Assembly (NCBI GenBank): GCA_951406725.2
Contig: OX597823.1
Coordinates: forward strand, 44,392,001-44,456,000
Direction of reading: 5' to 3'
Length of the DNA: 64,000 bases
Source: Octopus vulgaris
Lineage: Eukaryota
A model generated the notes under the pieces. It saw only the letters and a program-made list of their open reading frames with translations. It was not told the origin of the DNA and did not search any database. Made by a program: the position numbers and the translations under genes. Position 1 is the first letter of the stretch, and every line of letters starts with the position of its first letter. Below, piece after piece: positions 23,834 to 64,000 of the stretch.

Positions 23834-25555
23834 ATCATCATCATCATCGTTTAACGTCCGTTTTCCGTGCTAGCACGGGTTGGACAGTTCGACCAGGGTC
23901 TGGGAAGCCAGGGGCAGCACCAAGCTCCAGTGTGATCTGGCAGTGTTTCTACGGCTGGATGTCCTTCCTAACGCCAACCACTCCGCGAGTGTAGTGGGTG
24001 CTTTTTACGTGCCACCTGCACAGGTGCCAGGGGGGGGGGTCTGGCATCGGCCACGATCGGTTGGTGCTTTTAACGTGCCACCAACACGGAAGCCAGCCAA
24101 GGCGGCGCTGGCATCAGCCATGTTCGGATGGTGCTTTTTGTGCCACCGGCACAGAAGCCAGTCGAGGCGGCGCTGGCATCGGCCATGTTCAGATGGTGCT
24201 TTTTATGTGCCACCGGCACAGAAGCCAGTCGAGGCGGCGCTGGCAACGGCCACGTTCGGATGGTGCTTTTTATGTGCCACCGGCACAGGTATCACAACTA
24301 CTATTTCTATTGATATTTGTTTCGATGTTCATGTACATGCACTTGACTCAACAGGTCTCCTCAAGCACAGCGAGATGTTCTGTGAGGTACTTTGAATGGG
24401 CAGGGGCTATGCGGAACTGGTGCCGGAAGCATCCCGGGTCTTTGCAGTCACAGCACATCTCCAGAGATCTCGGTCCTTCGCCATTGCCTCAGTGAGGCCC
24501 AACGCTCTGAGGTCATGCTTGACTACCTCATCATATGTCTTCCTGGGTCTACCTCTCCCCCTGATTCCTTCAACTGTTTGGGAGCGGCACTTCTTCACAC
24601 ATCTCTCCTCATCCATCCGCAGTACATGACCATACCATCGCAGGCGTCGCTCTTGCACACCACATCTGATGCTTCTTATGTCCAGCATTTCTCTCAGGGT
24701 GCTTACACTCTGTCGTGCATTCACACTGACATTACACATCCAGCGGATCATGCTAGCTTCATTTCTTTCAAGTCTGCGCATGTCCTCTGCAGTCACGGCC
24801 CATGTTTCACTACCGTGAAGCATGGCAGTTCGCACACATGCATCATACAATCTACTTTTCACTCTGAGTGAGAGACCCTTTGTCGCCAGTAGGGGTAGGA
24901 GCTTTCTAAACTTTGCCCAGGCTATTCGTATTCTAGTGGTGACACTCTCTGAGCATCCCCCTCCACTACTAACTTGGTCACCCAGGTAGCGGAAACTATC
25001 AACTACTTCTAGTTTCTTTCCCTGGAGTGTGATGGAATCTGTTTTCCGAGTATTTGTGGTGTCTATTGTCCCTGTGCATCTGCCGCACATGAAAGCTATC
25101 TTATCAGTTAATTTCCCTTTAATGTTGCTGCACCTCTTATGCATCCATAGCTTACACTGGGTGCATCTTATGGAGTTTCTACCTACACCTTTCCTACAGA
25201 TCGAGCAGGGCCACCTGCCCGATGGGGTGTGTGCTGAGTTCGCCTTTCTGCTTACTATAACTTTGGTCTTTGCTACATTTACTCTAAGGCCTTTTGATTC
25301 TAACCCTTGTTTCCACACCTGAAATTTCTTTTCTAGTTCCGGTAGTGATTCTGCTATGAGAGCCAGGTCATCAGCATAGAGGAGCACCCAGGGGCAACCT
25401 GTTTTGAATTCCTCTGTTATTGCCTGGAGGACTATGATGAATAAAAGGGGACTGAGGGCTGAGCCTTGGTGTACACCTACTTCTACCCGGAATTCTTCAC
25501 TATATTCGTTGCCAATCCTAACCTTGCTGACAGCCTCTCTGTATAGGGCCTGTAC
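23834..25555 (-). mobile_element. Young 5'-truncated RTE (BovB-like) LINE: RT C-terminal half, PHD-like finger, 3' UTR and (GAT)n tail
   Basis: ORF 24407-25708 contains GVHQGSALSPLLF, LLYADDL, GLRVNVAKTK, FRYLG and ERRLRWYGHV, uninterrupted for ~380 codons. The tandem-repeat UTR and catcatcatcgtttaacgtccg tail lie at 23834-24400. Confidence 0.92.
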
Positions 25556-25749
25556 ATATATATATTTGTGTGTGTGTTCATGTTTCCTTGTCATATAATT
25601 TTGATGGTTATAAATGAGTACCATCATCATGCAAGTAGTGTCATTTGTTGCCAGTTTGCCATGAAACATGTCTAGCCATGAGGAAGTATTAACTATGGTT
25701 GGAAACAAGTGAGAGTTGGCAACATGAAGGGTATCTGACTAGAAAAGTG

Positions 25750-43971: not shown

Positions 43972-45375
43972 TTAATATTCTTTGACTAGTTTCAGTCATT
44001 GCTCTGTAGCCATTTTGGAGTCCCGCTGACAAGAGCAGAAATTAGTCATGTCAACCTCACTATATTTTTTAGCCTGACATTTGCTTTTATCACTCTCTTT
44101 ATTGAACAACTAAGTTATGCGTGTGTGTGTGTCTGTGGGTATTGGGCTAAAAATGATTGGTTGGGTTGCTAAGGTGACTTAGCCATTTATTAATTAAAGA
44201 ATGATAGAATAAGTACCAGATTGAAATACATAGTGGGATTTGATATTGGTTTAAGCCTTCAACAGTGGCGCTGTTGATGTTGTGTCATTTCTTGACTCTT
44301 CCCTTGTTATTCAGGAGCTTAACTTGCTAGATATAACAAATAATCATCATCATCATCATCATCATCATCATTTAACGTCCGATTTCCATGCAGGCAGGGG
44401 TTGAACAGTTTGACTGGAGCAGGCCAGCTGAAGAGCTACCTGGGCTCCATGCTGGATGCCCTTTCTAATTACCAACTTTACAGTGTACTGGGTGCTTTTT
44501 ATGTGGCACCAGCACCTGTGAGCCTGCAAGATTAATTGCTCAGCTGAAGAGAGATGCAGGAGACATGCCTGTATGCAAGGACAACCACGGTTTTTAATCT
44601 TCTCAAATTCTGATTAACTAGATATAGCAAGTAAATCTTTTCAAATTACACTTTCCTATCTTAAAAACAAAAAATTAAGGAAGGACACATTAGATAATGT
44701 TCTTGATACACTATGTCCAAATAAATGACAATATTATCATAGCCTGAATGTTTTTAATCATAGGTTTTTCCATTCAGGGTTAACTTGACATTAGATATCT
44801 AACAGGTTTATCATTCAGTTTCATAGATGCTTAATTGACAAAAATCATCATAATTTTATATCAGCTTTGCTGTGCTGGCATGGTTGAATGGTTCTTTTAT
44901 GGCATAATACCTTGCCACTTGTTGCAGTCTCTGATCATCTGTCTCCTTCATGAAATTAAGCATTCTGAGATCAGGCTGCACACCATTCTTTCCATATCCT
45001 ACTCGTTTGCAGACTCCTTCCACTCGTATCACTTGACCTTTAATGAAAATACTCTCTGTCATATACATTGCATGTCTATACCAGCATAGTTTTCTGCCTT
45101 GTACACTACAGCTGATTACTACAACTTAGATTTTGTGAATGTGGCAATTATTGCATCATGCCATCTTGGGAGTATTGTGTTGAGTTGGTTGATGAATGTG
45201 ATTCCTGGATGTTGTATTGTGTCTTCCGATGTATGTGTGTCTGATGAGTGCTCATGTATTGCTGTTGTGTAATAAATTTTCTCAATGACTCTTTAATATT
45301 GTTAAGTTCACTTTTATCTCTGATTAATTTATTTAACTCTAATATTTTTTTTTCTTACTTCGCAGAATACCAAAG

Positions 45376-48300
45376 ATGTCATCCCACAGCCAAGTATCAG
45401 AGCAACTATTGACCTACTTGGAGACAAAAAGCAATGGTCGAACTGTGCTTACTGTTCCAGATGGCAAATACAAGGGTTGGCTACCCAAGTCTTTGTACTC
45501 CTTGGAGCTGGATGAACTCTATCTCCCATTTATGCGATTGTACACCTTCCCTGTACGCGGCAGTAGTCTAGGTTCTCTAACTAGCTTAAAAGTTTTCCAT
45601 GCTGTTGGCAACTACCTCCAAACTATTCCAAACTGTTTTACTCAAATTTCTGAATTACAGAAATTAAACCTTAGTTATAACAACCTCTCAGAGCTATCAC
45701 AGTCTATTTTCAAACTAACCAGTTTGGTTGAGCTAAACCTGTGTGAGAACAGCGTTGAAAGGCTACCGCCGGAAATCGGAGAGCTTAAGAATCTGCGCCA
45801 TCTGAATATCGGTGGAAATCTGTTGTCCGAAGTTCCGGAACAAATGAGTCAATGCAAGAAGTTGCAGATTCTTAATCTGTCTGGAAAGTGGAGTCCGCGA
45901 GGTGGATTACGGACGTTACCAATTTCAGTGTGCAATTTGCCAGAACTGCTCACCCTTGACTGCAGTTGGCACCAAATTGACACACTCCCTGATGAAATTG
46001 GTAATTTAAAAAAGCTGAAAATTCTTAGCTTGCGTGGAAATCACTTAAAATATATATCTGAAAAAATTGCTGATTGTACTAATTTGCAAGAACTTCATCT
46101 TACTGCCGCTATGCGGTTTATTCCTAAAATACCTGTAGCTTTGCTTAACCTCAAGAGTTTAGTTAAACTGAATATAAGTGGCAATTATTTTACTACTATA
46201 CCTCCTGAAATTAGTGGATTAGAAAATTTGAAAGTATTTCTCATGCAGAAAAATGCTTTACTCCAATTGCCTGAAGAATTCTTCAATCTTCAGCAGTTGG
46301 AGGAAATTGAACTGTCAGACAATTATCTTGAAACAATTCCTGGTAGTATTAGAAGGCTTCATGTTTTACGAAAATTGAGTGTGTGCAATAATAGACTAAA
46401 ATCTTTGCCTAATGAAATATCTAGTTGCCAGTCGCTTCAGTCACTCAATTTAGCTCACAACTTGCTTGAAGAAATTCCGGACACGTTCCACCGACTTGAC
46501 AACTTAGACTTTTTGAACTTGACAGAAAATAAACTCAAGCGCTTGCCTCTCCTCTTAGACCAGCTTACTGGCCTTGAGAAAACAAATGGCATTTTCTTGC
46601 AAGGCAATTATTTGGTAAAACCACGGCAGGAAATATGTGATCAAGGTGTGGGGGCATTGTTTAAATACTTGAAAGAAATTCGAGTTAGTGAGGCAAACCA
46701 TCGGAGAAAGATGATTCTTACTGGTGCTGTGAAGGCTGGAAAAACCAGCTTACGAAATGCATTGCTTTTGGGCCGATCACGATTAACTGCAGATGATGAA
46801 CGAACGTGGGTATTGGAACGCCATCTCTGGGAACCTGAAGAAAGCTTACGGGTACAGATTCTTGATTTTGGTGGGCATCATATTTATTCTGCTGCTCATC
46901 ATATGTTTCTTACCTCAGAAGCTTTGCACATTCTTGTTTTTGATCTGAATGTGTTTTCTTGTGATCCTGAATCCTATGACTTTAGGATCGGAGATTGGCT
47001 GGAAGGAATTCTGGACAGAGCACCAGGAGCATCTATTCATTTAGTTGGAACTCACGCTGATCTTTGTAATGAGAATGAAATAGCAGAGAAGAAGGCTTAC
47101 ATCCTGGAGAAGATGCATTCTGAAGAGAACACGAAGATTGATAATCTTCGTATGGAAATAAATCAACTGAAAGAGAAGTTAGAAAGTACGCAGAGACAAG
47201 ACACTGGCAAGAGTGGTTTTTCAGATTTCGATGTTGAACGAGATTCTGAGAAATTAAGTCACCTGCAGCGTATGGTAAATACCCGAGTGATATTACCTGA
47301 TGATATTTCAACAGTCAGTTGTGCAGATGATCTTGTCGGCATTAATGAATTTGTTGATAAAGTCATCACTACATTGAAAGAATCAGAACAGCGGCCTCTT
47401 CCAAAGTCTTGGTATAGTTTCTTAATTGAGCTGCAGCAACGAGAAGAGAAAATACTTCAATGGAATGATACATTAAAGATTTTTACTGATCTCATGAAAA
47501 GCTTAGGCCAGTCAATGATTAGCATGGAAGGGTCTCCTGAAAAAAGTTTGCAAGTTATTTTAAAATATTTTCATGCAACTGGAGAAATCATTTGGTACTA
47601 TGACAATCCTAAGCTCAATAAGCTTGTATTCCATCGACCAGAGACACTGATTGATATGTTGCGCTCAATATTTCGGCATGATTTTGAGGATATTATGGTG
47701 TATCATCGACATTTGGGCTTGAAAGTGAACATGACTGAGGAACAATTTAGAAATGCCAAGCAACTTTTCCTTCATGAAGGAATGATGTCAGTTGAACTTC
47801 TTCGCTATACTCTTTGCCACTTTCAACTTGATGTCAGTGCTCTTGAGACATTTACCTCACTCATGTTAAAGTTTGATCTTTGCTATGAGATACCCATTAA
47901 TGAGATTAATGTCTCGTTACTGGACTACACCCGATTACTTTTATTTCCTTGGTTCTTACCTGATGTCTCACCAGCAAATCTTGCCTCAAAGTGGCCTACT
48001 CAGGTCCCTAAGGACACTGTACAGCTCACAATTCAGTTTCAATTTCCAAAGAAGGGTCCACCAAATTTCTTTGAAAAAGTTTCTGTTCGTTTTCAGAACT
48101 ATGTATCTTACTGCGATGGTTGGCGCAATGGTATCTATGCTAGATACAATTTGAGTAAATGTTTGCTGCAGAAAGATAAGAAAGAATTGAATGGTCAAAA
48201 TATGATGCTAGTTACTCTGTCTGTACGAGGCAGTGATATGCAAGAACTCTGGAGTCTCATTCACATGACTTGGCAAGACATGCTTGGTCTTCTACATGAG

Positions 48301-48487
48301 TGGCCATTTGCACTTGTTGACATAAAGCTACTTTGCTCGCATTGCATCATGACAGGAAATGAGGATCCATACCAGTTCTCAGGGAAAGTTTTGGAACGTC
48401 GCTGCCCCAAGGGAGTCTACCACGTGCAGTGCCCTAATCAAAAAGATTGTCCCATCCCTGCTTGTTTTGTCTACTTCCTTGATCCAG
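45376..48487 (+). CDS. MFHAS1: ROCO protein, MFHAS1/MASL1-like, coding exon 1: ~16 LRRs, Roc GTPase, COR, Cys-rich C-terminal region
   Basis: Part of the 1057-aa ORF. LxxLxLxxNxLxxLP repeats span ~45500-46620. Roc motifs: P-loop GAVKAGKTS, DFGG, VGTHAD, TVSC. The segments VGTHADLC..E..EK, LPKSW and LL.EWP....I.LLCS.C...G...P..F.G..L....P.GV....CP resemble vertebrate MFHAS1 as I recall it. Acceptor ttcttacttcgcAG ends at 45365; donor CAG|GTAAGA follows 48487 (phase 1). Confidence 0.93.
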
Positions 48488-48968
48488 GTAAGATAGTCAT
48501 TATCAATATTCTTTTTTATTTTTTCATATCTAACTTTTCTTTTCAGTAAAATTACCTTTTTCAAGAATTCTCTTTTATTTTTCATACTTTCATTAACCTT
48601 GATTCTCTTGAGTCAAACCAGACCATTTCAGTAACAATTTATTGTATTGTTCCTTTGACCACATTATCTGAAAAGGGTCTCCTTACCTGTTGCTTTCCCC
48701 CAATCCACAACATTTAAGGATTTCTCACATTGGTGTACAAAGCTGATATTTCATAGTTAAAGGTTAACAGTCAATAAGATCAATGTCTCAGGTTGAAAAA
48801 TAAATACTATCAGGCATTTTAGTTGATGCTTTACTGTTTCTGACACTTCTTATGTACTAATCTAATACATAGTTTTTTAAATCAAATTTTGACAGAATCC
48901 AGACTAGCAGAAGTTCTGTTATTATTATAATGGGTTATGGATATTTTTTTTCCCGTTCTTGTTTGATT

Positions 48969-48969
<1 letters not shown>

Positions 48970-49013
<44 letters not shown>

Positions 49014-49386
49014 TTGTGTGTATGTATGTATATTGATATATGTGTGTATGTATGTATATTGATATATGTGTGTATGTATGTATATTGATATATGTATATA
49101 TGTGTACATATGTATGCATAAATATATATGTATATATATATGTACATATATATATATATATATAAGTGTATATATATGTATATATATAGGTGTATATATA
49201 TGTATATATATATATGTGTATATATATATGTACATATATAGGTGTATATATATGTATATATATATATATATATAGATGTGTATATATATGTATATATATA
49301 TATATATATAGATGTATATATATATGTATATATATATATGTAAATATATAGATATACATGTGTATATATGTATATACATATGTATT

Positions 49387-49458
<72 letters not shown>

Positions 49459-49468
49459 CGTATATATA
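48970..49468. repeat. Compound (TA)n/(TG)n microsatellite
   Basis: Direct reading. Many similar tracts at ~3200-3500, 3800-4000, 11205-11345, 30700-30760, 34060-34170 and 52560-52620. Confidence 0.95.
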
Positions 49469-49667
49469 CATCATCATCATCATCGTTTAGCGTCCGTTTT
49501 CCATGCTAGCATGGGTTGGACGGTTCTACTGGGGTCTGTGAAGCCAGAAGGCTTCATCAGGCCCAGTCAAATCTGGCAGTGTTTCTACGGCTGGATGCCC
49601 TTCCTAACGCCAACCACTCCGTGAGTGTAGTGGGTGCTTTTTACGTGCCACCCGCACTGGTGCCAGT
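49469..49667 (-). mobile_element. RTE 3'-end fragment
   Basis: catcatcatcgtttagcgtccgttttccatgctagcatgggttggac..., nearly the same as 23834-24010. Confidence 0.8.
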
Positions 49668-49689
49668 ATATAACTTTTTAGTAGAAGAA

Positions 49690-50750
49690 AGAATTAGGTA
49701 GTGTTCAGATGTACAAAGTCGCAGTATTTATCTGGGGGATGAAAGGGTCAGGCGTGGGATAAAATTTTCCATCTAATTTTAAAACTAATAATCTTATCTT
49801 TTAATTCCTAGATACATTTACATTGAGTAGTCGAAGAGCGTTTATTCGAATTACAGAAAGGCAGTTCGTGGTTCACCACTCTGTCTTTAATTAAGCTTGT
49901 ACAACAGCCTATATAAAAGAAGTGTTTACCGCCAGTTTCAAGTATGGCTTGGTATACTACATTTTTTCTTGTGTAGTGATTATTGAATTTACATTGTTTA
50001 TTAATTCTGCAATCGCAAAAATCACTAATATTGTCACTGGGAATCTGTGGGTTGGGGCGAGTGATCTCCCCTTGATGGTTAAGTAAAGAAAGAGTATTAG
50101 AATTATTTCGGGGTAGATATGGAATGTATTTAGCGTAAAGTTCATCTAGTTTACCTGAATTTGGAGATGATATGTATCTAAATAAATATCACAAACAACT
50201 GCTGTGGAGTAATTCACTATATTTGTTTTTATTTATATTGAAGTGTCTATTTATTATCCTGTGTATTATAATGATTAGATTAGATTTTACTTGTTTGACA
50301 AAGGGCAAAATTAGCCGTATAACATTTTTGTTATATTATTACTAGTATTTGGATTATGATAGCTATCCATTATGGATTTAATATAAGGTATGTAGTTTTT
50401 ATTTCTGTTAACAATGTGTGTAGTATTGGATTTGTTATTATAATGATTTATGGGTGGACATATGTTCTTATTGGCTATGGTGGAGGCTGAAATATTGTTT
50501 CTATCCATGTGATTATCATCATAACTAGGCTTGTGTTTAGTATTCCTAGGGTGTATGGTATGCATGTTTCTTATGTTATTGTTTGTATAGGTATTGGTAC
50601 AGGTCCTGAGGTCTATTTTCTTAGGTCGTGTTATGTCATTTTGATGTTGTTTGATTCTATTCGATATACATTTATTTTGCAACCTATTAACTATGTTATA
50701 GGTATTTATTGCGTTATTCAGTGGTTGGGTCATTAGGTTTAGTAATTAAG
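49690..50750 (-). mobile_element. Decayed Penelope-like element (GIY-YIG endonuclease)
   Basis: Minus strand encodes VVYQAILETGGKHFFYIGCC....KDRV.NH...F followed by ELKDK....KIRWKIL; the upstream limit is uncertain. Confidence 0.7.
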
Positions 50751-51299
50751 TTACGCTTAATAGGCGTTGTGTGGTAAGTAGCTTGCTTACCAACCACATG
50801 GTTCCGGTTTCAGTCCCACTGCGTTGCACCTTGGGCAAGTGTCTTCTACTATAGCCTTGGGCCAACCAAAGCCTTGTGAGTGGATTTGGTAGATGGAAAC
50901 TGAAAGAAGCCCATCGTATATATATATATATATATATATACATAGTAGAAGACACTTGCCCAAGGTGCCACGCCTGTGTATATATATATATATACACAGT
51001 GGGGGGAATAAATATTCATACACGTGAAAATTCTTTATTTATTTAATTTCTAATGAACATAAATGGGATTATACCAATACTATATTTGCATACACATGCA
51101 TAAACTAAGAATATGCAAAAGAAACTAATAAATTATAGTAACTAATGAATTTATATACAATTATAAATATTTAGGGGTGAAAAAAGTATTCATACAGAAT
51201 AAATTTATGATTTTCTATGCCACAAAATACTACTAAAATAATTTTTTTTTTACTAGAACTTTCTCGTTTGTTCCAATAATTTTATCAGTTGTCATTTTT

Positions 51300-52048
51300 A
51301 AGTGTCAATGTCATTGGGCATATACAACAGTGTAAGCATCTCGAGACAGAAAATTTGGGTGTAAGAGTTATCAGATGTGGTGCGCAAATGAGATGACTGT
51401 GCTGGTATGGCCATGTAATGCATATGGATGAGGACAGCTGTGTGAAGAAGTGCTGATCTCTAACTGTGAAGGGAACTTGTGGAAGAGGTAGACCCAAGAA
51501 GACATGGGATGAGGAGATGAAGCATGATCTTTGAACATTAGGCCTCACAGAGGCAATGACAAGTGACTGAGGCCTTTGGCAATATGCTGTGCTTGAGAAG
51601 ACCTGATGCCAGTGTTGTGTTACTGTCACTATTGTTGGTGGCACATAAAAAGCACCCTCTGAATGTTGGGTAGTATGCTGTGCTTGAGAAGACTCGTCAC
51701 ATACCTGGCACACTGTGCTGGTGGCATGTAAAAAGCACCCTTCGAACTTTGGGCCTCACAGAAGCAGTGGCAAATAATTGAGACCTTTGGCAATATACTG
51801 TGCTTGAGAAAACTTGTCAAACCAAGTGAGATCGCAGTCATGGTCAAAGCCAGTGTTTTGTAACTGGCACCTATGCCAGTAAAAAGCAACCACTCTTAGA
51901 GTGGTTGGCATTAGGAAGGGCATCCAGCTGCAGAAACCATGCCAAATCAGAGTGGAACCTGGTGCAGCTCCCCAGCTTACCTGTTTTCAGTCAAAACTGT
52001 CCAACCCATGCCAGCCTGGAAAACAGACATATGATGATGATGATGATA
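51300..52048 (+). mobile_element. Decayed RTE LINE 3' portion
   Basis: RLCWYGHV...CVKKC...GRGRPKKTW, followed by the 3' UTR and gatgatgat tail. Confidence 0.8.
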
Positions 52049-52339
52049 ATATTTTGCAGACGAGAAAGTAAATTTCTAACTCAGTAATGCTGTACAGACA
52101 ACAGAGAAAGACTGGTTATTTACCTTTACAAGATGGAAAAAAAAGTTGCCAGAAGGTGGCTACAGTACTCAAACCCATACCCCTCAGATACTGGCTGAGT
52201 GCTTTAAGCATTAAGCTAAACAGTCCCCAATAACAGTTACTGTCAAATTTAATACTAAATTATAGCTTACATACACATTTCTACATACATGTACTTGCAC
52301 ATAAATTCATAGATATACACATACACATAACATATATTA

Positions 52340-52370
<31 letters not shown>

Positions 52371-52562
52371 TACATACACGTACACACGCAAATGCATGCA
52401 TTTATATACATGTATATTGAAAGATTTCCCTCGATTTCTTCATGTTTTTGAAACACTTTAATTGACAAAGGATGCATTTCCTATAATATATTATGCAAAC
52501 CTGAAATGTATGTAGCAAATGATTTTAAAATATCACTATTTGGCTTGACTTCATTATTACAG

Positions 52563-52612
<50 letters not shown>

Positions 52613-53052
52613 ATGTATACATACAGGAAGACATGGGATGATGTGGTGAGGACCAATCTCAGGATGTTGGGGCTCACAGAGGCAATGACAATGGACCGAG
52701 ATGTCTGGTGATATGAGATTCTAGAGGAGACCTGCTCACATCAATGAAACTGAGTTCTAGAAGCATTGTGTTCTACCCACATGTAACAATAAAATTTTCA
52801 TACACCCTACCCTGACGAACCAAACTGCATTGCCTCTCTTTCTCACATTTCCTCTTCATACACTATGATTATCTCCCACTCCTCAATTCTGTCCTCACTA
52901 CCCTGCTCACTGTATCATTGCTTTCCCCACCCCTACTCCCTACTCAATTATGCCTGCTTGGCAATACTCTGCCATGTATATTATGACCTCTATATCTTGC
53001 GGGGTATGCTCTGGCACCTGCCATCATTTATCTCTCTTGTCCTTACTCTACC

Positions 53053-53285
53053 TATTTCTTTAATACCCACAAGGGGCTAAACACAGAGAGGACAAACAAG
53101 GACAGACAGATGGATAAAGTCGGTTATATCAACCCCAGTGCGTAACTGGTACTTATTTAATTGACCCCGAAAGGATGAAAGGCAAAGTCAGCCTTGGCGG
53201 AATTTGAACTCAGAATGTAATGGCAGACGAACAACGGCTACGTATTTTGCCCGGCGTGCTAACGTTTCTGCCAGCTCGCCGCCTT
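53053..53285 (-). mobile_element. tRNA-derived SINE with 18-bp TSD
   Basis: TSD tcttgtccttactctacc; head aggcggcgagctggcagaa and B-box gagttcaaattcc on the minus strand. Confidence 0.88.
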
Positions 53286-53399
53286 TCTTGTCCTTACTCT
53301 ACCATCCCATCTATGTCTCATCCCTGTCTTTAGCGAGTATACCCTGCCCCTTTGCCACCTTCTCTCTCCTGCACTCTCTTGCTTCTCCCTCTCTCCTCC

Positions 53400-53790
53400 C
53401 CCCTCTCTCTCTCTCTTTCCCATACATTCCCTCTGGCTGGGTAACCATGTATCTCCTCTACAGCAGCACACCTGTTTTCTGCCCGCGTCCTTGATCACTC
53501 TCTCTCCCTCTCTCTTTCTCTCCCACTCCTGGGTAACCATGTACCTCTTCTACAGCAACACATCTGTTTCTGTTCTCATTCTTGATCACTCTCTCTCCCT
53601 CCTTCTCTTGCTCTTCTCTCTGGCTAGATAACCATATATCTCCTTTACAGCAGTACACCTGTTTCTGCCCTCTTTCTTGTTAACTCTTTCTCTCTCTGTC
53701 TCCCTTGTTAACTGTCTCTCTCTCTCTTTCTCTGGCTGGGTAACCATGTACCTCCTCTACAGCAAGACATCTGTATCAGTCTCTTTGTCT
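53400..53790 (+). repeat. Degenerate tandem repeat (~75-100-bp units) within an RTE-type 3' region
   Basis: About 4 copies of ctgggtaaccatgtacctcctctacagca...cacctg. Confidence 0.7.
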
Positions 53791-54194
53791 CTCTGTCGCA
53801 CTGTAAACCTTTCATCATCTGACACAAGATAACCTCCTCCAATGCCCCCTCCTCTCTCAAAGATTCGTTAGCTTGCAAGTTACTTGGTGACCCTGCCAGT
53901 GCTGGTGCCACTTAAAAAGCATCCAGTCAACACTGTAAAGTGGTTGGCATTTGGAAGGGCATCCAACTGTAAAAAACTATGCCAAAACTGACCTCGCCTG
54001 TTTTGGTGCCATGTAAAAAGCACTCAGCCTGCTCTGCAGGATGGTTGTTGTTAGAAAAGGCATTCAGCCATAAAAACCATGCCAAAAAAGACACAGAAAT
54101 CAGTCGCAGTTAGCTCCTGTCAAACTGTCCAACCCATGCCAGCATGGAAGGAGGACGTTAAACGATGATGATGAATTAGTTATACTCCTACAGT

Positions 54195-54518
54195 GAAGGC
54201 GCATGGCTTAGTGGTTAGGGGCATTTGGCTCATGATCGTAAGGTCGTGAGTTCAGTTCTTGGCAGCGCGTTGTGTCATTGATCAAGACAGTTTATTTCAC
54301 GTTGCTCCAGTCCACTCAGCTGGCAAAAATGAGTAGTACCTGTATTTCAAAGGGTCAGCTTTGTCACACTCTATGTCACGCTGAATCTCCCCGAGAGCTA
54401 CGTTAAGGGTACACGTGTCTGTGGAGTGCTCGGCCACTTGCATGTTAATTTCTCGAGCAAGCTGTTCCGTTGATCAAATCAGCTGGGACCCTTGTCTTTG
54501 CAACCAACAGAGTGCTCT
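54195..54518 (+). mobile_element. Full-length tRNA-derived SINE with 15-bp TSD
   Basis: TSD ttatactcctacagt; A-box TGGCTTAGTGG and B-box GAGTTCAGTTC. Confidence 0.88.
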
Positions 54519-54986
54519 TTATACTCCTACAGTACACAAAATATTTTAACAATTATTTTTATGCAATTCTTAATAATACTTAATTATAAAAATATAACAG
54601 GATTTTTTTTAATCATCGAATGGCTATGAAGGGTCCAGTAGAGAAACGGGTTGAGAAACTCTACACTAAACTTTGTTGACAGAAGGGAAATTATTGGTTT
54701 CAGATTTTGGCACAAGGCCAGCAAGTTTGGCAGGAAGAGTAAGTCAACTTATTTTCTCAACCCCAAAAGGATGAAAGGTAAAGTCGGCCTCTGCGAAATC
54801 TGAACTCAGAACGTAAAGACAAATGAAATGCTGCTAAGCATTTTGCATGGCATACTAACGATTCTGTCAGCTCAGAAGGGAAATTATTGATGTTAGTGTA
54901 GTACTGATGATAATGATTGATATTCATTGCTATTTTTAAATTCTCTTCTCTTTTTTGAAAATTTTTCTTCCGTTTCTTTTCATTAG

Positions 54987-55097
54987 AATTCCAAGAAGAT
55001 TTACCAAAGCATATTCAGACCACAGTTGAGTTCATGCACAGGTGTAATATCTTGATGCAAACCATGGATGATATTGATGGATCTTCTGCCGATACTG
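54987..55097 (+). CDS. MFHAS1: MFHAS1-like ROCO gene, coding exon 2 (111 nt, phase 1-1 linker EFQEDLPKHIQTTVEFMHRCNILMQTMDDIDGSSADT)
   Basis: Long polypyrimidine tract and cattAG acceptor ending 54986; donor CTG|GTAAAT after 55097. Open in the frame required by the upstream phase-1 donor; unique sequence among repeats. Confidence 0.8.
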
Positions 55098-56992
55098 GTA
55101 AATAAACTGCAATTTGTTTTCTTTTTTAATATATTTTCATACTATACATCATGCTTCCCATTTCCCTCTGCTATTACCATTCTCCACTTGTGGTCCATCT
55201 GTGAACCATTCAACTCAACTGTGTATTATTGTGTAGCTTAGAAGTTTACATAGTTTCAGATTGAGTCCTGCGGAATGACACCCTGGGTAAGTGTTGTCTA
55301 CCATAGCCTTTGATCAGTCCAATCTTTGTGAGTGAAATTGGTTGATAGAAACTGTGTGGAAGCCTAACAGAAGAACTAGTTTTTCATCTTTGTCTGGTTC
55401 TTGGACTTGTTTAATGGGTTCACTCTTCTGTTAGGAATTCAGCCTAAGTTTTAGGCCTGAAGATAACTTCTATTTTTTTCACCCATCTTCAAAGTTGAAG
55501 AAAAAAGCTAGGAGCACTACTTAAAATTGGGATCTTTGCCTATATAAAGTATTGAAGTAAGGCTCATCGGTTCATAATTATGAATCTACTGCAAGCATTT
55601 CTTTGTGTTTTTGTAGAATAACTTTATTGTAAATTGCCTCAGTTTATTCAGTTACCAGATGTATGGGATCATGATATCTATAGGTATCATTTTAAGATGA
55701 TTTCATGCAGAGATTTATGTCTTCTTTATTTGACACAGTGAAATAGATATTATAGAAACTTCTCAGCATTAAAGGGAGAAGTACATTTTCACATTTGATA
55801 TATTTCAATTCTACTTATTGTCTCACAAATGTGATGTAACTATCACAAACAAGAGCTATACAATTTGTTAAATTGATAGCTTGGGATACATTCTCTTTTT
55901 TATGCTAATAGTCTGACCAAGATACAGTCAATCTAAGCACATCACTATTATCTAAACCAATGAGGAAGCTTCTAAGCTGTTGTTCAATCTGTTGGAGATA
56001 GCAGCAAAATCTCTCTCAAATCACACTTTTTCTTTTTTTAAAGAATACAACACTGATATAAAAGAAAAACAGGACAGTCTTGGCTGGAATATTTTTGATC
56101 ATCAGTCAGTTTGGTCATGACTGACCTGCGACTAAACAGCAACATCACTATGTTTGGTACTGAGAATAAGTAGCATCCAACCATTAAAGAAAAGTAAAAG
56201 TGAAGAGTGAAAGTCTTGACAACCAAAATTAGATTTTAAATTGATGTGTTATCATCAGGTCATTTCTAATTTTGTAAACCTATGATGAAAGGAGTTCTGT
56301 CCTTTACCATGCAGTCTTTTTCTTTTAGGCATGGTGTGTCTGTGTTTACATTTTTCAATGTGTCCTTTTTTTTTTTAATGATTAATTTGGAAAAGATTTT
56401 GCTGCTATTTCTTGCAAGTCCAGTGACTGCATAGGAGCCCTGTTATTAGCTTTTCTTTACTGATTTTTATGATGCTGGCAATAGTGGTGGTGGTGGTAAA
56501 AATATTTGATCATTTCTCGATAATTTGGTACTTCAACACTAAATCACTTTGTCTCAGTTACTATGTAGAACTAAAAATGTGCATTAGCTTGTTTAATTGT
56601 CAAGCAGAGCAACTGTGGTATAAGTAATGGCAGTTCTTTAGTTGTGAGCCTATATTTTTTATTCATCCATTACAAGCTTCTCCCAATGGAAGGAATCATG
56701 ACGGATAATCAAAAAATATGTTAAGTTGGAGGAACTCTGAGGGTGTGAAATTCAACTCCCATGAACGCTCATCATCATCATTATCATTTAAAGTTCATTT
56801 TCCATGCTGGCATAAGTTGGACAGTTTGGCAGGAGCTAGTATGCCAGAAGACCGCACTAGACTCTACTCTCTGTTTCAGTATGGATTCCGTGGCTGGATG
56901 CCCTTCCCAATACCAATCTCTCTTGAGAGTGTGTTGGCATGGCACCAGCACTAGTGAAGTCACCAAGTAATTTGGAAGACAAAGACTCCTCA

Positions 56993-57956
56993 TTATTTAC
57001 ATTTGACGGATATTTGTCCTCATCTTGTTTCGGCTGATATACCCTCCAGCCTTCATCAGGTGTCTTGAGGAAATTTCAAACCTGGGTTCTCATTCCAAAG
57101 GTATCTTTCGTTGTCGCCGCTGTAGCAGCAGCAGCAGCAGTCTGTCTACCCTATGTGAAAAGCCTCTCCGAAAAGATACAGAAGATATGCGGCCAATATG
57201 ACATCAGGACAGTATTCAAAAGTAATACAACACTTTGCAAATATCTCCTTCGAGTAAAACCACCCATAGAAGAGAATATGACCAAGAACTGCGTGCACTC
57301 CATACCATGCAGCTGTGGTAGGCGAAACATGCTGCCCCCTCAAAATAAAGGTAGAGAAACATTGCAAAGCTGTGACACGGGGAGATATTGATAAAACAGG
57401 TATAGCTGATCATGTATGGAAAAATGGAGCCCACCTCCCCCTATGGAATGAAGTTAAAATAATAGACAGAGAACACCACTGAAAAATATGAAAACTAAAA
57501 GAAGCAGCACATATGCTAGGACACAACAACCTCCTAAGCAGACTGGGTGCAGATATGAACAGCATATGGGAACCGGTATTAAAGAAGGATAGGAGATTAT
57601 TAGATTTATAAGCCCTAAAATTCACTCCATAATTGCCCATGAGCATATGGCGTAGTGGTTAAGAGCTACTAACCCCAAGATTCTGATTTTGATTCCGGGC
57701 AGTGACCTGAATAATAATAATGATGATGATGATAATGGTTATGGTGGTGGTGGCTGCAGCAGTGGTGAAGAAGAAGACGACGACGATGACGCCACTGCCG
57801 ACAATTGTCTTAGAAATGAAAACCCAGGTTTGAAATTTCCCCAAGACACCTGATGAAGGCTGGAGAGTATATCAACCGAAATGTGTTAACAAACAAGATG
57901 AGGACAAATATTTGTAAATAATGTACATAATTCCTCATCTCTTAGATATAGAACTG
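56993..57956 (+). mobile_element. 5'-truncated Penelope-like element: inverted 5' pLTR, RT thumb/GIY-YIG remnant, tRNA-like segment, 3' pLTR with hammerhead motif; 12-bp TSD
   Basis: TSD aaagactcctca. Peptides LPYVKSLSEKIQKIC...IRTVFKS and NCVHSIPCSCG, GIADHVW and VKIIDRE...KLKEAAHM. 56993-57105 is the reverse complement of ~57805-57920. Confidence 0.85.
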
Positions 57957-58548
57957 AAAGACTCCTCAACTGAGAGGAAGGGTGGTATTGAGAGAGGTGA
58001 GTTTGTGCCAGGTGATGAAAGCTTAAACTATGATAGAAGAACTGAAACAGGTGTCTTGCTGTGGAGTAGATACATGGCTACCGCAGTTGGGGAGAGAGAG
58101 AAAGATGTTGATGTGCCAAGATGTACCCTCAAGATTGAAGGAGGTGGGTGTAAGTGGGGTGGTACAGAGGATTCACAAGAGTGCAAATGGGGAAAGGGGA
58201 AGAGAAGGGTTGCAGTGAACACTGTATACCAACATTTTGTTGGTATACAGGAAAGAGGGAGTCTAGCAATCACATCTAATGTCTTGAGAAATCCCATCTC
58301 TTTTAAAAATCAATGAGGTACCTTTTAAATCAGTTTTGGAAGAGATGAAGAAGCTAAAGTGACAAAGGTATAATTTGAATCTGAGAACTTTTTACAAAGT
58401 ATTCACTGCTTTGCCTGTCACTCAGATACAGTAAGCTGTAATTGAAAAAAGCAGAATAATATAATGAATTCTTAAATAATTTTAACAGAAATAAGTATAA
58501 GTTTCTTTTTATTTTATTAAAAAAAAATCTTTTCTTCATATTTTTCAG

Positions 58549-58832
58549 GCCTGCTGAGTGATCTGGGTTTAAGGTATTTGGCTGCCAAACTTGGCAAAGA
58601 TTGGTTTGCAGTTGGTCTCCAGTTGGGCTTACAACAAGCTGACATTGAAAGAATCCAACTTGACCATCCTTCTGACTCTTTCAAGCAAATCTTTACCCTC
58701 TTAGTTCTGTGGAGGGATAACAACAGGGGTAATTCCAATAGAATTGCAGAACTACTAAGCGCCCTGGAAATCAGTGAACTGAATGCGATAGTGGCAGAGC
58801 TAAAGAAGAAATATGCCATTGAGGACAGTTAA
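58549..58832 (+). CDS. MFHAS1: MFHAS1-like ROCO gene, terminal coding exon encoding a DEATH domain
   Basis: Acceptor tttttcAG ends 58548. Phase 1 gives GLLSDLGLRYLAAKLGKDWFAVGLQLGLQQADIERIQLDHPSDSFKQIFTLLVLWRDNNRGNSNRIAELLSALEISELNAIVAELKKKYAIEDS*, matching the death-domain pattern LA..LG.DW..LG..LGL....I..I..........L..W.......L..AL. TAA stop at 58830-58832. Confidence 0.88.
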
Positions 58833-59122
58833 TCTAGGTGAGTCACTAATTAGATCTTGGATTTTCGTATATGAACAAAACAAAAAAAAAGCATGCACAT
58901 TCACATATGCATACATGTGCGTATATACGCTTTTTCCTGATAATACAGCGACAATAACAGTTGGTACAACTGGAAAATGTATAAACACTCTTGTAAAGAC
59001 ATTGATTACCATAGGCACATTCCAAAAAAATACCAATACTAGAGTTGTTTTTATCAAAAAGCAAGTGTGTTTTCCGTGATGATTTGATTAGCAGTGCTGA
59101 GTTTTACAATTCTGTAAATATT

Positions 59123-59336
59123 CATTTCTATTCTATGCACAAGGCCCGAAATTTTGGAGGAGGCAGAGGTCAGTCGATTAGATCAACCCAGTATGCAACT
59201 GGTACTTAATTTATCAACCCCAAAAAGATGAAAGGCAAAGTCGACCTCGGCAGAATTTGAGCTCAGAACATAAAAACTGACGAAATACCACTAAGCATTT
59301 CACCCGGTGTGCTAACGTTTCTGCCAGCTCACCGAC
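59123..59336 (-). mobile_element. tRNA-derived SINE with 19-bp TSD, just 3' of the ROCO stop codon
   Basis: TSD ttacaattctgtaaatatt; same core as 53053-53285. Confidence 0.85.
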
Positions 59337-62056: not shown

Positions 62057-64000
62057 TACTCCTGCGCTTGTTGAACTACTATTTGAAGAGGGAGATTAGG
62101 TACTGCCCTCCACCTAACTTTGTGGTTGGATGAACTCCGTTTTTAAAATGAGGCAAGAGGTTGTTATAGCATTGTACTAGGTGGACAAAGCTGGTTAGCA
62201 GGGAAAATAACTGAAGATATTTCTATTGGGAGTTAGTTGAGAGTATGAGTGATGATGACCTGGAACTGATTCAGGGCATTGATAAGAACAGCCTGAGTAG
62301 TCTCTTTTGGGGTACTTTCAGGTCAAAGACCTAGACAACTTCCAGAAGTCCTTGGCATGGTAGTACTATGGAGGTGAGATTGGGGTGGGGGGTAGGGCAT
62401 TGCTTTTTCAAGACAAGCTCTTCAGGCTGGAAACACCAACATGTAATATTTGTTTCAGCTTCTTAGGTTCTGAGTTCAAGTACTATTAAAATCAACTCAT
62501 GCCTTTCATCTCTCTGGGAGTGGGGTGGGTTCGATAAAATTAAGTACCAGTCATGTACTGAGGTCAATGGTTTTAACTACCACCCCCACTCGCCCACCTT
62601 CCTTCAAAATTGCTGGCTTTGTGCTTAAATCATACATTTATTTATCGCTTTTGTACTTTTTTCTGTCTTTGCAGGACCAACGGTAGACAAGTTAACCAAG
62701 TTAATATGGTGGTTTATTTGGCCATCATTGAGAAGTAGACAGAAGAGAGAGAGAGAGAAAAATGAAGAGAGAGGGAAGGCAAGGGAGGGAAAGGGAAGGT
62801 GATGACTGACACTACTTGTGATTTATTACATATACATGTTTATACACACACACATACTCTCACATGCACACACACACACACACAAACGCGCTCTTACTCT
62901 GCCATACATAGTGAGCACATAATCACGATGAATTCAGGTTATATATGCAGCTGTGGAAGACAAGCAAAATTTTGGTTTTTTTCCACCAAAAAAAAAAAAA
63001 CCTGCAAAACATTTTGCTAGAGATTTATTTTTTACAAAATTTTATTTATTTACTTTTTCCTATGATCTTTGACATTTTCTGGGTTTGAGGAATCCAAATT
63101 GGATTTGAGGGTTGGTTATGTGTTTTCCTTTTTGGGATGGAACAATTTTTTTTAAACATTTTGTTTCTTTTCCCTGTTTTTCTTTTATTCTTTTCCTCAG
63201 TGCACTTTCTGTGCTTGTATATAAGAATATTAACCTGAAGATCAATATTGTATTGTTTTGCTTTCTTTTGATAGTATGACCTTAATTCAAGGAGAATGGA
63301 CTGCCAGAATCGGTAGAGCAATGGACTAAATGCCTTGTCATAGTTATTTACATCCCTTTATGTTCTGAGTTCAAATCCTGCCGTGGTCAACTTCACTTTT
63401 TATCCTTTCAGGCTTCATGAAAAAAAGTTATAGTTAAGTAATGGTGAGTGTATGTGTGTGAATTGAAATCATTATGTCCCTGCCTCTTTAATTTCTTGCC
63501 TTGTTCTGCCAATTGTAGAACTTAAATGTTATGACTATATTTCTGTCAAGCACCATAGAGCAGAGGTACTCTTCATACAAGGCAAGTATGCCAGCCTATT
63601 TCATTTTCTGATTCTAGCCAATTCCTTTCTTCGTATGTATCAATAATGATTCTCGCATGAAGAGCATGAATATTATAGCACAATCTCATTTTACTCTTCT
63701 CCATTGATAAAGGCCTTCTGCCTATGTAAGCAGTCAATTTAAGGTCAATGTTCTTTCAAGATTTATGAGGTGAGGTGGGGTGGGGTATAACAAATCAAAC
63801 ACTGTCACCTGTATAAAAACCAGTGTGTGTGTGTGTGTGCGTGTGTAGGAGGTGGGTGAGGTACAGATTCTGTTATGTGTTTATGTGATTATCAAAATAT
63901 GCTCTAGTAATGCAATGGTGTTGGGTCACCTGATCATTTACATATGAAGATGATCTAGGAGTGGCCCAAAAGAGTAATTAGAAGCATTATGCATATCTGT

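Follow-up and report, generated by a model that had tools for sequence, protein, structure and literature searches.

Animal ROCO proteins, in which a Roc GTPase domain is followed by COR, have been described in several combinations with other domains. According to a 2014 review, "only deuterostomes have MFHAS1 genes," and the Trichoplax ROCOs carry CARD, Death, and leucine-rich repeat (LRR) domains (PMC4104024); in a 2019 review, the DAPK1 group, which lacks LRRs, is the only one credited with death domains (PMC6337361). An MFHAS1-like gene of coral has been reported to drop on symbiont contact (PMC8861010). Here, we analyze a stretch of 64,000 nucleotides (nt) from Octopus vulgaris (assembly GCA_951406725.2, contig OX597823.1, positions 44,392,001 to 44,456,000; hereafter the window, in whose numbering positions are given), which at 45376 to 58832 on its forward strand holds a gene for an MFHAS1-type LRR-Roc-COR protein ending in a death domain (DD). 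The gene is genuine and spliced, conserved and uncharacterized; it forms part of a pan-molluscan orthologue group rather than being peculiar to octopus and offers a good handle on a larger family. Our literature search returned no description of the molluscan gene and no named LRR-Roc-COR-Death class, figures and key older papers lying outside the search, so that absence from print is not established. No mention was found in the accessible supplement text of PMC11378527, whose forty animal ROCO domain combinations may include LRR-Roc-COR-Death.

Architecture of the encoded protein

The initial annotation, made from the sequence alone, had joined three exons in frame and given their product an LRR-Roc-COR-Death architecture, and both proposals were borne out. 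The coding sequence consists of 45376-48487 (3112 nt), 54987-55097 (111 nt), and 58549-58832 (284 nt), which join in frame across two GT..AG introns, both of phase 1, to give 1168 amino acids (aa) and a single terminal stop. The product is identical to CAI9729022.1 (NCBI/UniRef, "MFHAS1 homolog [Octopus vulgaris]"), with no residue different. On exon 1, Pfam found in order LRRs, Roc (445-562, E 1.4e-8), COR-A (717-841, E 1.6e-7, a match that falls below the Pfam curated cut-off), and COR-B (884-1022, E 1e-6). Exon 3 alone matched Death at E 1.3e-9, with 38.5 bits versus a cut-off of 22.6. As a chance control, the window was scored in six frames with a DD profile made from 26 non-cephalopod orthologues: this exon received 88.8 bits, and no other segment exceeded 6.3. 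The parts encoded by exon 1 are listed below, where pLDDT stands for the predicted local distance difference test.

45571..46620, forward strand: LRR solenoid, aa ~66-415 (Pfam and AlphaFold2, pLDDT 86-96 per 10-aa block)
46708..47391, forward strand: Roc GTPase, aa 445-672 (Pfam, motifs)
47071..47280, forward strand: long helical hairpin between G4 and G5, aa 566-635, common to vertebrate MFHAS1 (model, alignment)
47392..48330, forward strand: COR-A and COR-B, aa ~673-985 (Pfam, Foldseek)
48331..48486, forward strand: Cys-rich tail of the form CxxC...C...C, aa 986-1037 (alignments)

With Roc followed by COR and intact G1 to G5 motifs, the protein is a ROCO GTPase. The motifs (G1 GAVKAGKTS at 450-458, the G2 Thr, G3 DFGG, G4 THAD, and G5 SC) are intact in 29/29 aligned orthologues. 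The best PDB sequence match of Roc is LRRK2 Roc (E 3.6e-9), and the top Foldseek matches are LRRK1 and the C. tepidum Roco LRR-Roc-COR structure. The protein is also an MFHAS1-type ROCO in the broad sense, having LRR-Roc-COR without a kinase, a helical insert between G4 and G5, and a CxxC tail; the distance from G4 to G5 is 84 aa here versus 86 in teleost MFHAS1. The Cys-rich tail is a putative metal-binding element.

The AlphaFold2 model, built on a 29-row alignment, reached a mean pLDDT of 81 and a predicted template modeling score of 0.50. It places, in order, the LRR solenoid, Roc with the hairpin inside it, COR, the Cys tail, a helix, a loose linker at 1064-1073, and a helical DD. The solenoid contains about 15 strands at a spacing of ~23 aa, the strand at aa 47-49 included, and the DD has five DSSP helices (pLDDT 74-88), the first of them 21 aa long, and is tethered by the low-confidence linker. 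Both the Pfam match above the cut-off and this helical bundle assign the last exon to the death domain superfamily. The N-terminal half of Roc was badly modeled (pLDDT <50 at aa 444-457 and 467-473) and was not used as evidence.

Exon structure and transcripts

The exons and associated features are as follows (UTR, untranslated region).

45366..45375, forward strand: putative 5' extension of coding exon 1, the 10 nt ahead of the ATG, with a polypyrimidine tract and an AG acceptor before it (sequence)
45376..48487, forward strand: coding exon 1, aa 1-1037 plus 1 nt, with the N-cap, LRRs, Roc, COR, and Cys tail
54987..55097, forward strand: coding exon 2 (phase 1-1), helix 1040-1063 and then the flexible linker (splice model, contigs, fold model)
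58549..58837, forward strand: exon 3, encoding the DD (aa 1076-1163) and the stop codon (58830-58832), followed by 5 nt of 3' UTR and a GT donor at 58838 (Pfam, contigs)
58729..58828, forward strand: optional 100-nt GT..AG intron within exon 3, used in the annotated isoform CAI9729021.1, whose record was reproduced exactly
62675..62802, forward strand: opening part of exon 4, coding in the annotated isoform and 3' UTR in the main one

The AG acceptor 10 nt before the ATG suggests at least one noncoding exon further upstream. The start Met has a similar position in the orthologues.

Contigs were compared for 4 of the 20 runs listed, which are presumed to be RNA, no run being recorded as such. 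The two joints proposed by the initial annotation fared differently. The joint 55097/58549, which skips 3451 nt bounded by GT..AG, was present in one contig of 4.1-6.6 kb per run in 4/4 runs from 4 studies, and these runs showed scant or zero coverage over the unique intron bins. For the joint 48487/54987 the support is indirect: the same contigs extend 2.3-3.5 kb upstream of exon 2 without a match to the piece of intron 1 compared, and orthologues of full length (1170 aa) come from 3.8-kb Logan contigs. At the other end, the contigs of all 4 runs depart from the window sequence at 58838 and run 200-2719 nt beyond exon 3, in agreement with splicing from a donor 5 nt past the stop to the acceptor at 62675, a junction shared with the annotated isoform.

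Neither a DD-less transcript nor the joint of the 100-nt internal intron occurred in the contigs of the 4 runs, contig assembly being a step that drops rare forms; use of that intron would remove the last DD helices. We also considered short DD-less database proteins as isoforms. Those examined stop just past the exon 1 boundary and are read-through products, the exceptions being the annotated Argopecten X2 and one Sepia model, with different last exons. The short orthologues that end just after this boundary also suggest conservation of intron 1 across four classes.

High-copy repeats lie in the introns and flank, at 54700-54880, 56870-57960, and 59140-59330. Over those at 56870-57960, the contigs showed very deep coverage together with A>G differences, a pattern that repeats or editing would be expected to give. 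Elsewhere in the window, Pfam gave no match on 47 other open reading frames, and at 24407-25738 on the reverse strand a 443-aa frame with reverse transcriptase and PHD-like matches represents a piece of a retroelement.

Conservation in molluscs

A Roc-COR search yielded 58 proteins, of which 45 had >=43% identity; 24 named mollusc species appeared once each among the close matches, and cluster look-ups added a chiton, Sepia, Pomacea, and two oysters. Orthologues are found in cephalopods, a chiton, gastropods, and bivalves at 40-81% identity. The octopus DD was matched in 31/58 of the Roc-COR proteins, and Pfam detected Death at E<=0.01 in 26/29 full-length orthologues chosen for alignment. A search with aa 985-1168 retrieved 3 cephalopod proteins only, which reflects the word-index limit of the search and is no sign of absence. 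Roc-COR-Death clusters found in the ESM Atlas, mostly molluscan, indicate that other Roc-COR-Death families exist in molluscs. The Magallana gigas orthologue (P0026/P0080) has two tandem DDs, while the 1137-aa members of its cluster seem to have one.

The gene is apparently present in one copy across molluscs. In the octopus genome itself, the Roc-COR and COR-B searches each gave a single match and the DD search a single strong one, counts that come from first-look searches and are lower bounds; Pfam COR-A finds one other octopus locus, on C18. The 56 matches of Pfam Roc were unspecific, since this profile also matches in 9/14 control genomes, and were left out of the copy number.

Among the 29 orthologues, the best-conserved part is the Roc core (mean pairwise identity 0.73), followed by the LRR (0.51) and the DD (0.41). 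Between octopuses, the LRR is the least changed part. CAI9729022.1 differs from the O. sinensis protein at 1 site and from that of O. bimaculoides at 30, of which the LRR accounts for 5/415 and the rest of the protein for 25/753; the corresponding ungapped figures for Argonauta are 50/415 and 172/753. The region before Roc measures 437-464 aa in 29/29 orthologues, all LRRs are within one exon, and concave-face LRR positions are no more variable than convex ones (0.40 versus 0.37, p=0.82, 11 repeats scored). Brown-algal ROCOs are described as shuffling single-repeat exons (PMC11378527). Expansion, repeat-exon shuffling, variable repeat number, and a hypervariable concave face, by which a diversifying LRR receptor of the brown-algal type is recognized, were not seen in the molluscan gene, which thus shows no sign of receptor-style diversification.

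Relationship to vertebrate MFHAS1 and the effector slot

A teleost MFHAS1 was one family representative, with 434 matches, of which the best 120 (fish and three amphibians) were examined. The octopus protein aligns to it end to end and colinearly, at 25% identity over 1005 columns, and this identity, the shared G4-G5 insert of ~84 residues, and the CxxC tail uphold the MFHAS1-type core initially assigned. It then continues past the Cys tail into the DD, which was found in 0/120 of those best vertebrate matches, as the initial annotation had anticipated.

MFHAS1 identity in the strict sense did not survive the phylogeny. Roc-COR trees of 55 rows (LG+G4) and 36 rows (LG+C20), chosen from 129 plus vertebrates, were unrooted, no outgroup being included. 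The molluscan genes form one clade (100/100) whose branching follows the classes. Vertebrate MFHAS1 falls in a separate supported group (98/95) with DD, CARD, caspase, and OTU paralogues of amphioxus, and its sister is an amphioxus DD protein (94/96, long branch). A single clade of molluscan and vertebrate MFHAS1 was rejected by the approximately unbiased (AU) test (p=0.0009; 55 rows, LG+G4), a hypothesis chosen after a first tree had been seen. This rejection, together with the supported branches between the two in the LG+C20 tree, argues that the octopus gene is not a strict orthologue of vertebrate MFHAS1. On this unrooted tree, loss of the effector on the vertebrate MFHAS1 line is plausible.

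The wider family was surveyed with HMMER, which returned 2152 representatives at E<=0.001. The best 150 were examined, 147 of them new, and Pfam was run on 57 of the 147, picked for rank or long C-terminal tails, so that the effector counts are enriched. The 57 proteins carry at their C-termini Death in 10 cases (9 with LRR), CARD in 13, GT4 in 6, OTU in 3, and caspase, trypsin, and TIR in 1 each, two proteins having both OTU and GT4. As gene predictions, these relatives may include some artefactual fusions. The initial annotation had allowed for death-containing ROCOs in other invertebrates, and the same architecture was indeed found in the annelid Owenia (1), the sea anemone Actinostola (1), and the amphioxus Branchiostoma (7). 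A CARD form occurs in Lingula, and caspase, OTU, and trypsin forms occur in Branchiostoma. Since relatives hold CARD, caspase, OTU, trypsin, GT4, or TIR there, the C-terminal position behaves as an effector slot. In the LG+C20 tree, a DD paralogue groups beside caspase and OTU paralogues at 100/100, which shows exchange of effectors.

A clade of Branchiostoma and relatives (P0166, P0167, P0180, P0160, P0193, P0197, P0200) swaps Death, caspase, OTU, and GT4 on an LRR-Roc-COR core, and five of the GT4 forms fall with or resemble it. Within it, the Roc-COR parts are 56-63% identical, whereas the length of the N-terminal region ranges from 218 to 1425 aa, a roughly sixfold variation in LRR length. 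By analogy, this clade looks like an animal version of the bacterial AP-GTPase conflict proteins. The NLR-like modularity initially proposed for the octopus protein holds for the wider family, and given the effector swapping in relatives and the slow molluscan gene, NLR-like logic suits the family better than this member.

Death-domain affinities and candidate partners

Searched as a single sequence against solved structures in the PDB, the octopus DD matched PIDD1 (3e-8), RAIDD (2e-6), and FADD (3e-5). With a 4-row profile, the order was PIDD1 (7e-12), RAIDD (5e-9), RIPK1 (5e-7), THOC1 (8e-7), and ankyrin (2e-6), PIDD1 and RAIDD outranking ankyrin by 3-6 orders of E-value. Among 46 PDB matches at E<=0.1, none was a MyD88 or IRAK DD. 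Thus, the MyD88- or IRAK-type partnership that had been suggested is not favored, and the DD is, as far as its sequence tells, PIDD1/RAIDD-like. Its non-core positions E1108, Q1111, Q1121, and R1130 are conserved in 76-90% of rows.

Of 28 other DD loci in the octopus genome, those scoring best against the molluscan DD profile were tandem CARD-DD genes on C14 (42 bits), whose best PDB match is CRADD/RAIDD, and a FADD-like DED-DD locus (C26:2.42 Mb) reached 28 bits. On C20 and C26, there are open frames that contain both a CARD and a caspase match. First-look searches of the genome gave only 2 NACHT matches, a weak negative, versus 81 caspase and 39 CARD matches.

Several death-fold loci were noted in passing. 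The C14 genes (75.54-75.63 Mb; L044, L051, L060, L076) form a RAIDD/CRADD-like tandem cluster with CARD and DD in one open frame, confirmed for at least 3 genes, the fourth being a CARD frame of equal length. An expanded family with numerous near-identical DD exons occupies C29:27.9-29.4 Mb and C31:2-10 Mb (L042, L045-L061). At C4:0.40 Mb (L086:862-2832), a 656-aa frame free of introns combines a hydrophobic N-terminal segment with ZU5, UPA, and Death and probably corresponds to an UNC5-like cytoplasmic part without an ectodomain. The ZU5 locus at C4:156.6 Mb is probably ankyrin-like, judging by the adjoining DD.

Possible function

Building on the domains, the intact G1 to G5 motifs, the conservation in molluscs, the splicing of the DD exon, and the candidate partners, we tentatively favor, at somewhat short of an even chance, a conserved GTP-gated scaffold resembling the PIDDosome; its nucleotide cycling, ligand, binding, and output are postulated. 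The LRR-Roc-COR core would bind GTP and shift its oligomeric state on a fixed cue, which could be a signal of stress in the host, a protein under guard, or a molecule conserved among microbes (including NOD1/2-type sensing of pathogen-associated molecular patterns). This change would cluster the flexibly tethered DD, which might then nucleate an assembly with CARD-DD (RAIDD-like) adaptors or with FADD/RIPK-type proteins and so engage CARD-caspases or NF-kB/MAPK signaling. Human MASL1 is reported to bind GTP and to form complexes controlled by nucleotide state, and its overexpression kills cells (PMC3995007).

Several points weigh against such a scaffold. In the same account of human MASL1, GTPase activity is undetectable and the GTP-dependent pool is apparently monomeric (PMC3995007). 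Pfam found no ZU5, UPA, or Peptidase_S68 match in the octopus protein, which has Roc-COR in that place and hence no PIDD1-type autoprocessing module. Conservation of the DD ranks among the lowest in the protein (0.41 versus 0.73 for the Roc core), and 3/29 orthologues fall under the Pfam Death threshold. Ankyrin and THOC1 DDs, which are not known to build caspase platforms, also match it (E 8e-7 to 1e-5); moreover, similarity between DDs is no proof of binding. Finally, the lack of a PIDD1-like locus in the octopus genome, which speaks for the scaffold as a weak hint of another platform for the RAIDD-like genes, comes from a first-look, exon-by-exon search and is a weak negative.

Alternatively, the protein might modulate TLR/MAPK signaling like vertebrate MFHAS1, its LRRs binding host signaling proteins and its DD docking on or dampening an existing DD complex. 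Vertebrate MFHAS1 is described as induced by a TLR2 ligand, with NF-kB, JNK, and p38 inhibited first and then stimulated (PMC4658032). The colinear core agrees with this role, a single copy with a slow LRR would suit a fixed host partner, and the LRR scaffold SHOC2 is among the fold matches, though any LRR solenoid would do so. However, the AU result against strict orthology and the lack of MyD88 or IRAK DDs among the PDB matches make it somewhat unlikely. A nonimmune role in development, the cytoskeleton, or membrane traffic, with the DD as a plain interaction module as in ankyrin or UNC5, is in our view unlikely. The retention of one copy from cephalopods to bivalves, transcripts in all four runs, and the ankyrin and THOC1 matches are in keeping with it, and many ROCOs are described as working on the cytoskeleton and traffic (PMC4104024), but PIDD1 and RAIDD rank well above ankyrin, the C-terminal domains of the relatives are conflict-type effectors, and the Magallana orthologue duplicated its DD.

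The strong form of the initial idea, an arms-race pathogen receptor like the expanded invertebrate NLRs or the brown-algal ROCOs, appears very unlikely for the molluscan gene. The sensor-switch-effector layout, the scarcity of NACHT matches in octopus, and the variable LRR region and effector of the amphioxus clade are in its favor, but the single own-genome match, the once-per-species occurrence in molluscs, the fixed pre-Roc length, the slow LRR, the unexceptional concave face, and the confinement of all LRRs to one exon, unlike in brown-algal ROCOs, argue against it. Of the NLR-like receptor first proposed, the modular layout stands in the family, whereas the molluscan gene bears no arms-race signs, and a switch-controlled scaffold is preferred.

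More broadly, MFHAS1-type ROCOs could be overlooked GTPase-switched intracellular receptors of animals, parallel to NLRs and with a swappable effector, vertebrate MFHAS1 being an effector-less remnant and the molluscan gene a fixed DD form that, in octopus, would serve RAIDD-like adaptors and CARD-caspases as a platform in place of PIDD1; we regard this larger picture as possible but doubtful. It is important to consider that the surprise is limited, as databases already contained the protein, automatically named, and fusions of Roc-COR with death folds are known from other invertebrates. Nevertheless, the MFHAS1-type genes found here extend to molluscs, an annelid, a brachiopod, and a cnidarian, and many of them encode a death-fold or enzyme effector, in contrast to the deuterostome-only view. 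Being conserved and single-copy, with a defined DD and candidate partners that can be named, the molluscan gene makes it simple to test whether death-fold signaling can be driven by a GTP switch of the Roc-COR type, and it offers a hypothesis for why human MFHAS1, without an output domain, acts in TLR signaling and cell death.

Comparison with described systems

PIDD1 has ZU5-ZU5-UPA between LRR and DD, where the octopus protein has Roc-COR and no autoprotease match. Vertebrate MFHAS1/MASL1 (group 1 ROCO; PMC6337361, PMC3995007) shares LRR-Roc-COR, the long G4-G5 insert, the CxxC tail, and the lack of a kinase, but it has no DD in the best 120 of 434 matches and nests with the amphioxus paralogues rather than the molluscan clade. 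DAPK1 likewise places a DD after Roc-COR (PMC6337361), whereas it has an N-terminal kinase and ankyrin repeats without LRRs, and the octopus protein has LRRs and no kinase. Roc-COR joined to CARD, Death, or TIR, with a proposed role in immune signaling, is described for the Trichoplax ROCOs (PMC4104024), the Aplysia ROCO-TIR and MyD88-like ROCO (PMC9334734), and anemone NG1/NG3 (PMC5094078); these accounts, in their accessible text, describe no single-copy molluscan LRR-Roc-COR-DD gene. The prokaryotic AP-GTPase (Roc)-COR conflict proteins (Kaur et al. 2021, PMC8195603) combine LRR-GTPase-COR with a variable C-terminal GT4, TIR, caspase, or trypsin, the same kinds as in animal relatives, but they are reported as bacterial, with fast-evolving LRRs and many paralogues, in contrast to the fixed single molluscan gene. 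Unlike NLRs, the octopus protein has no Pfam match to NACHT or NB-ARC, its switch is a Ras-like GTPase instead of a STAND ATPase, and its effector is C-terminal; what it has in common with them is the arrangement of a repeat sensor, a nucleotide switch, and a death-fold effector.

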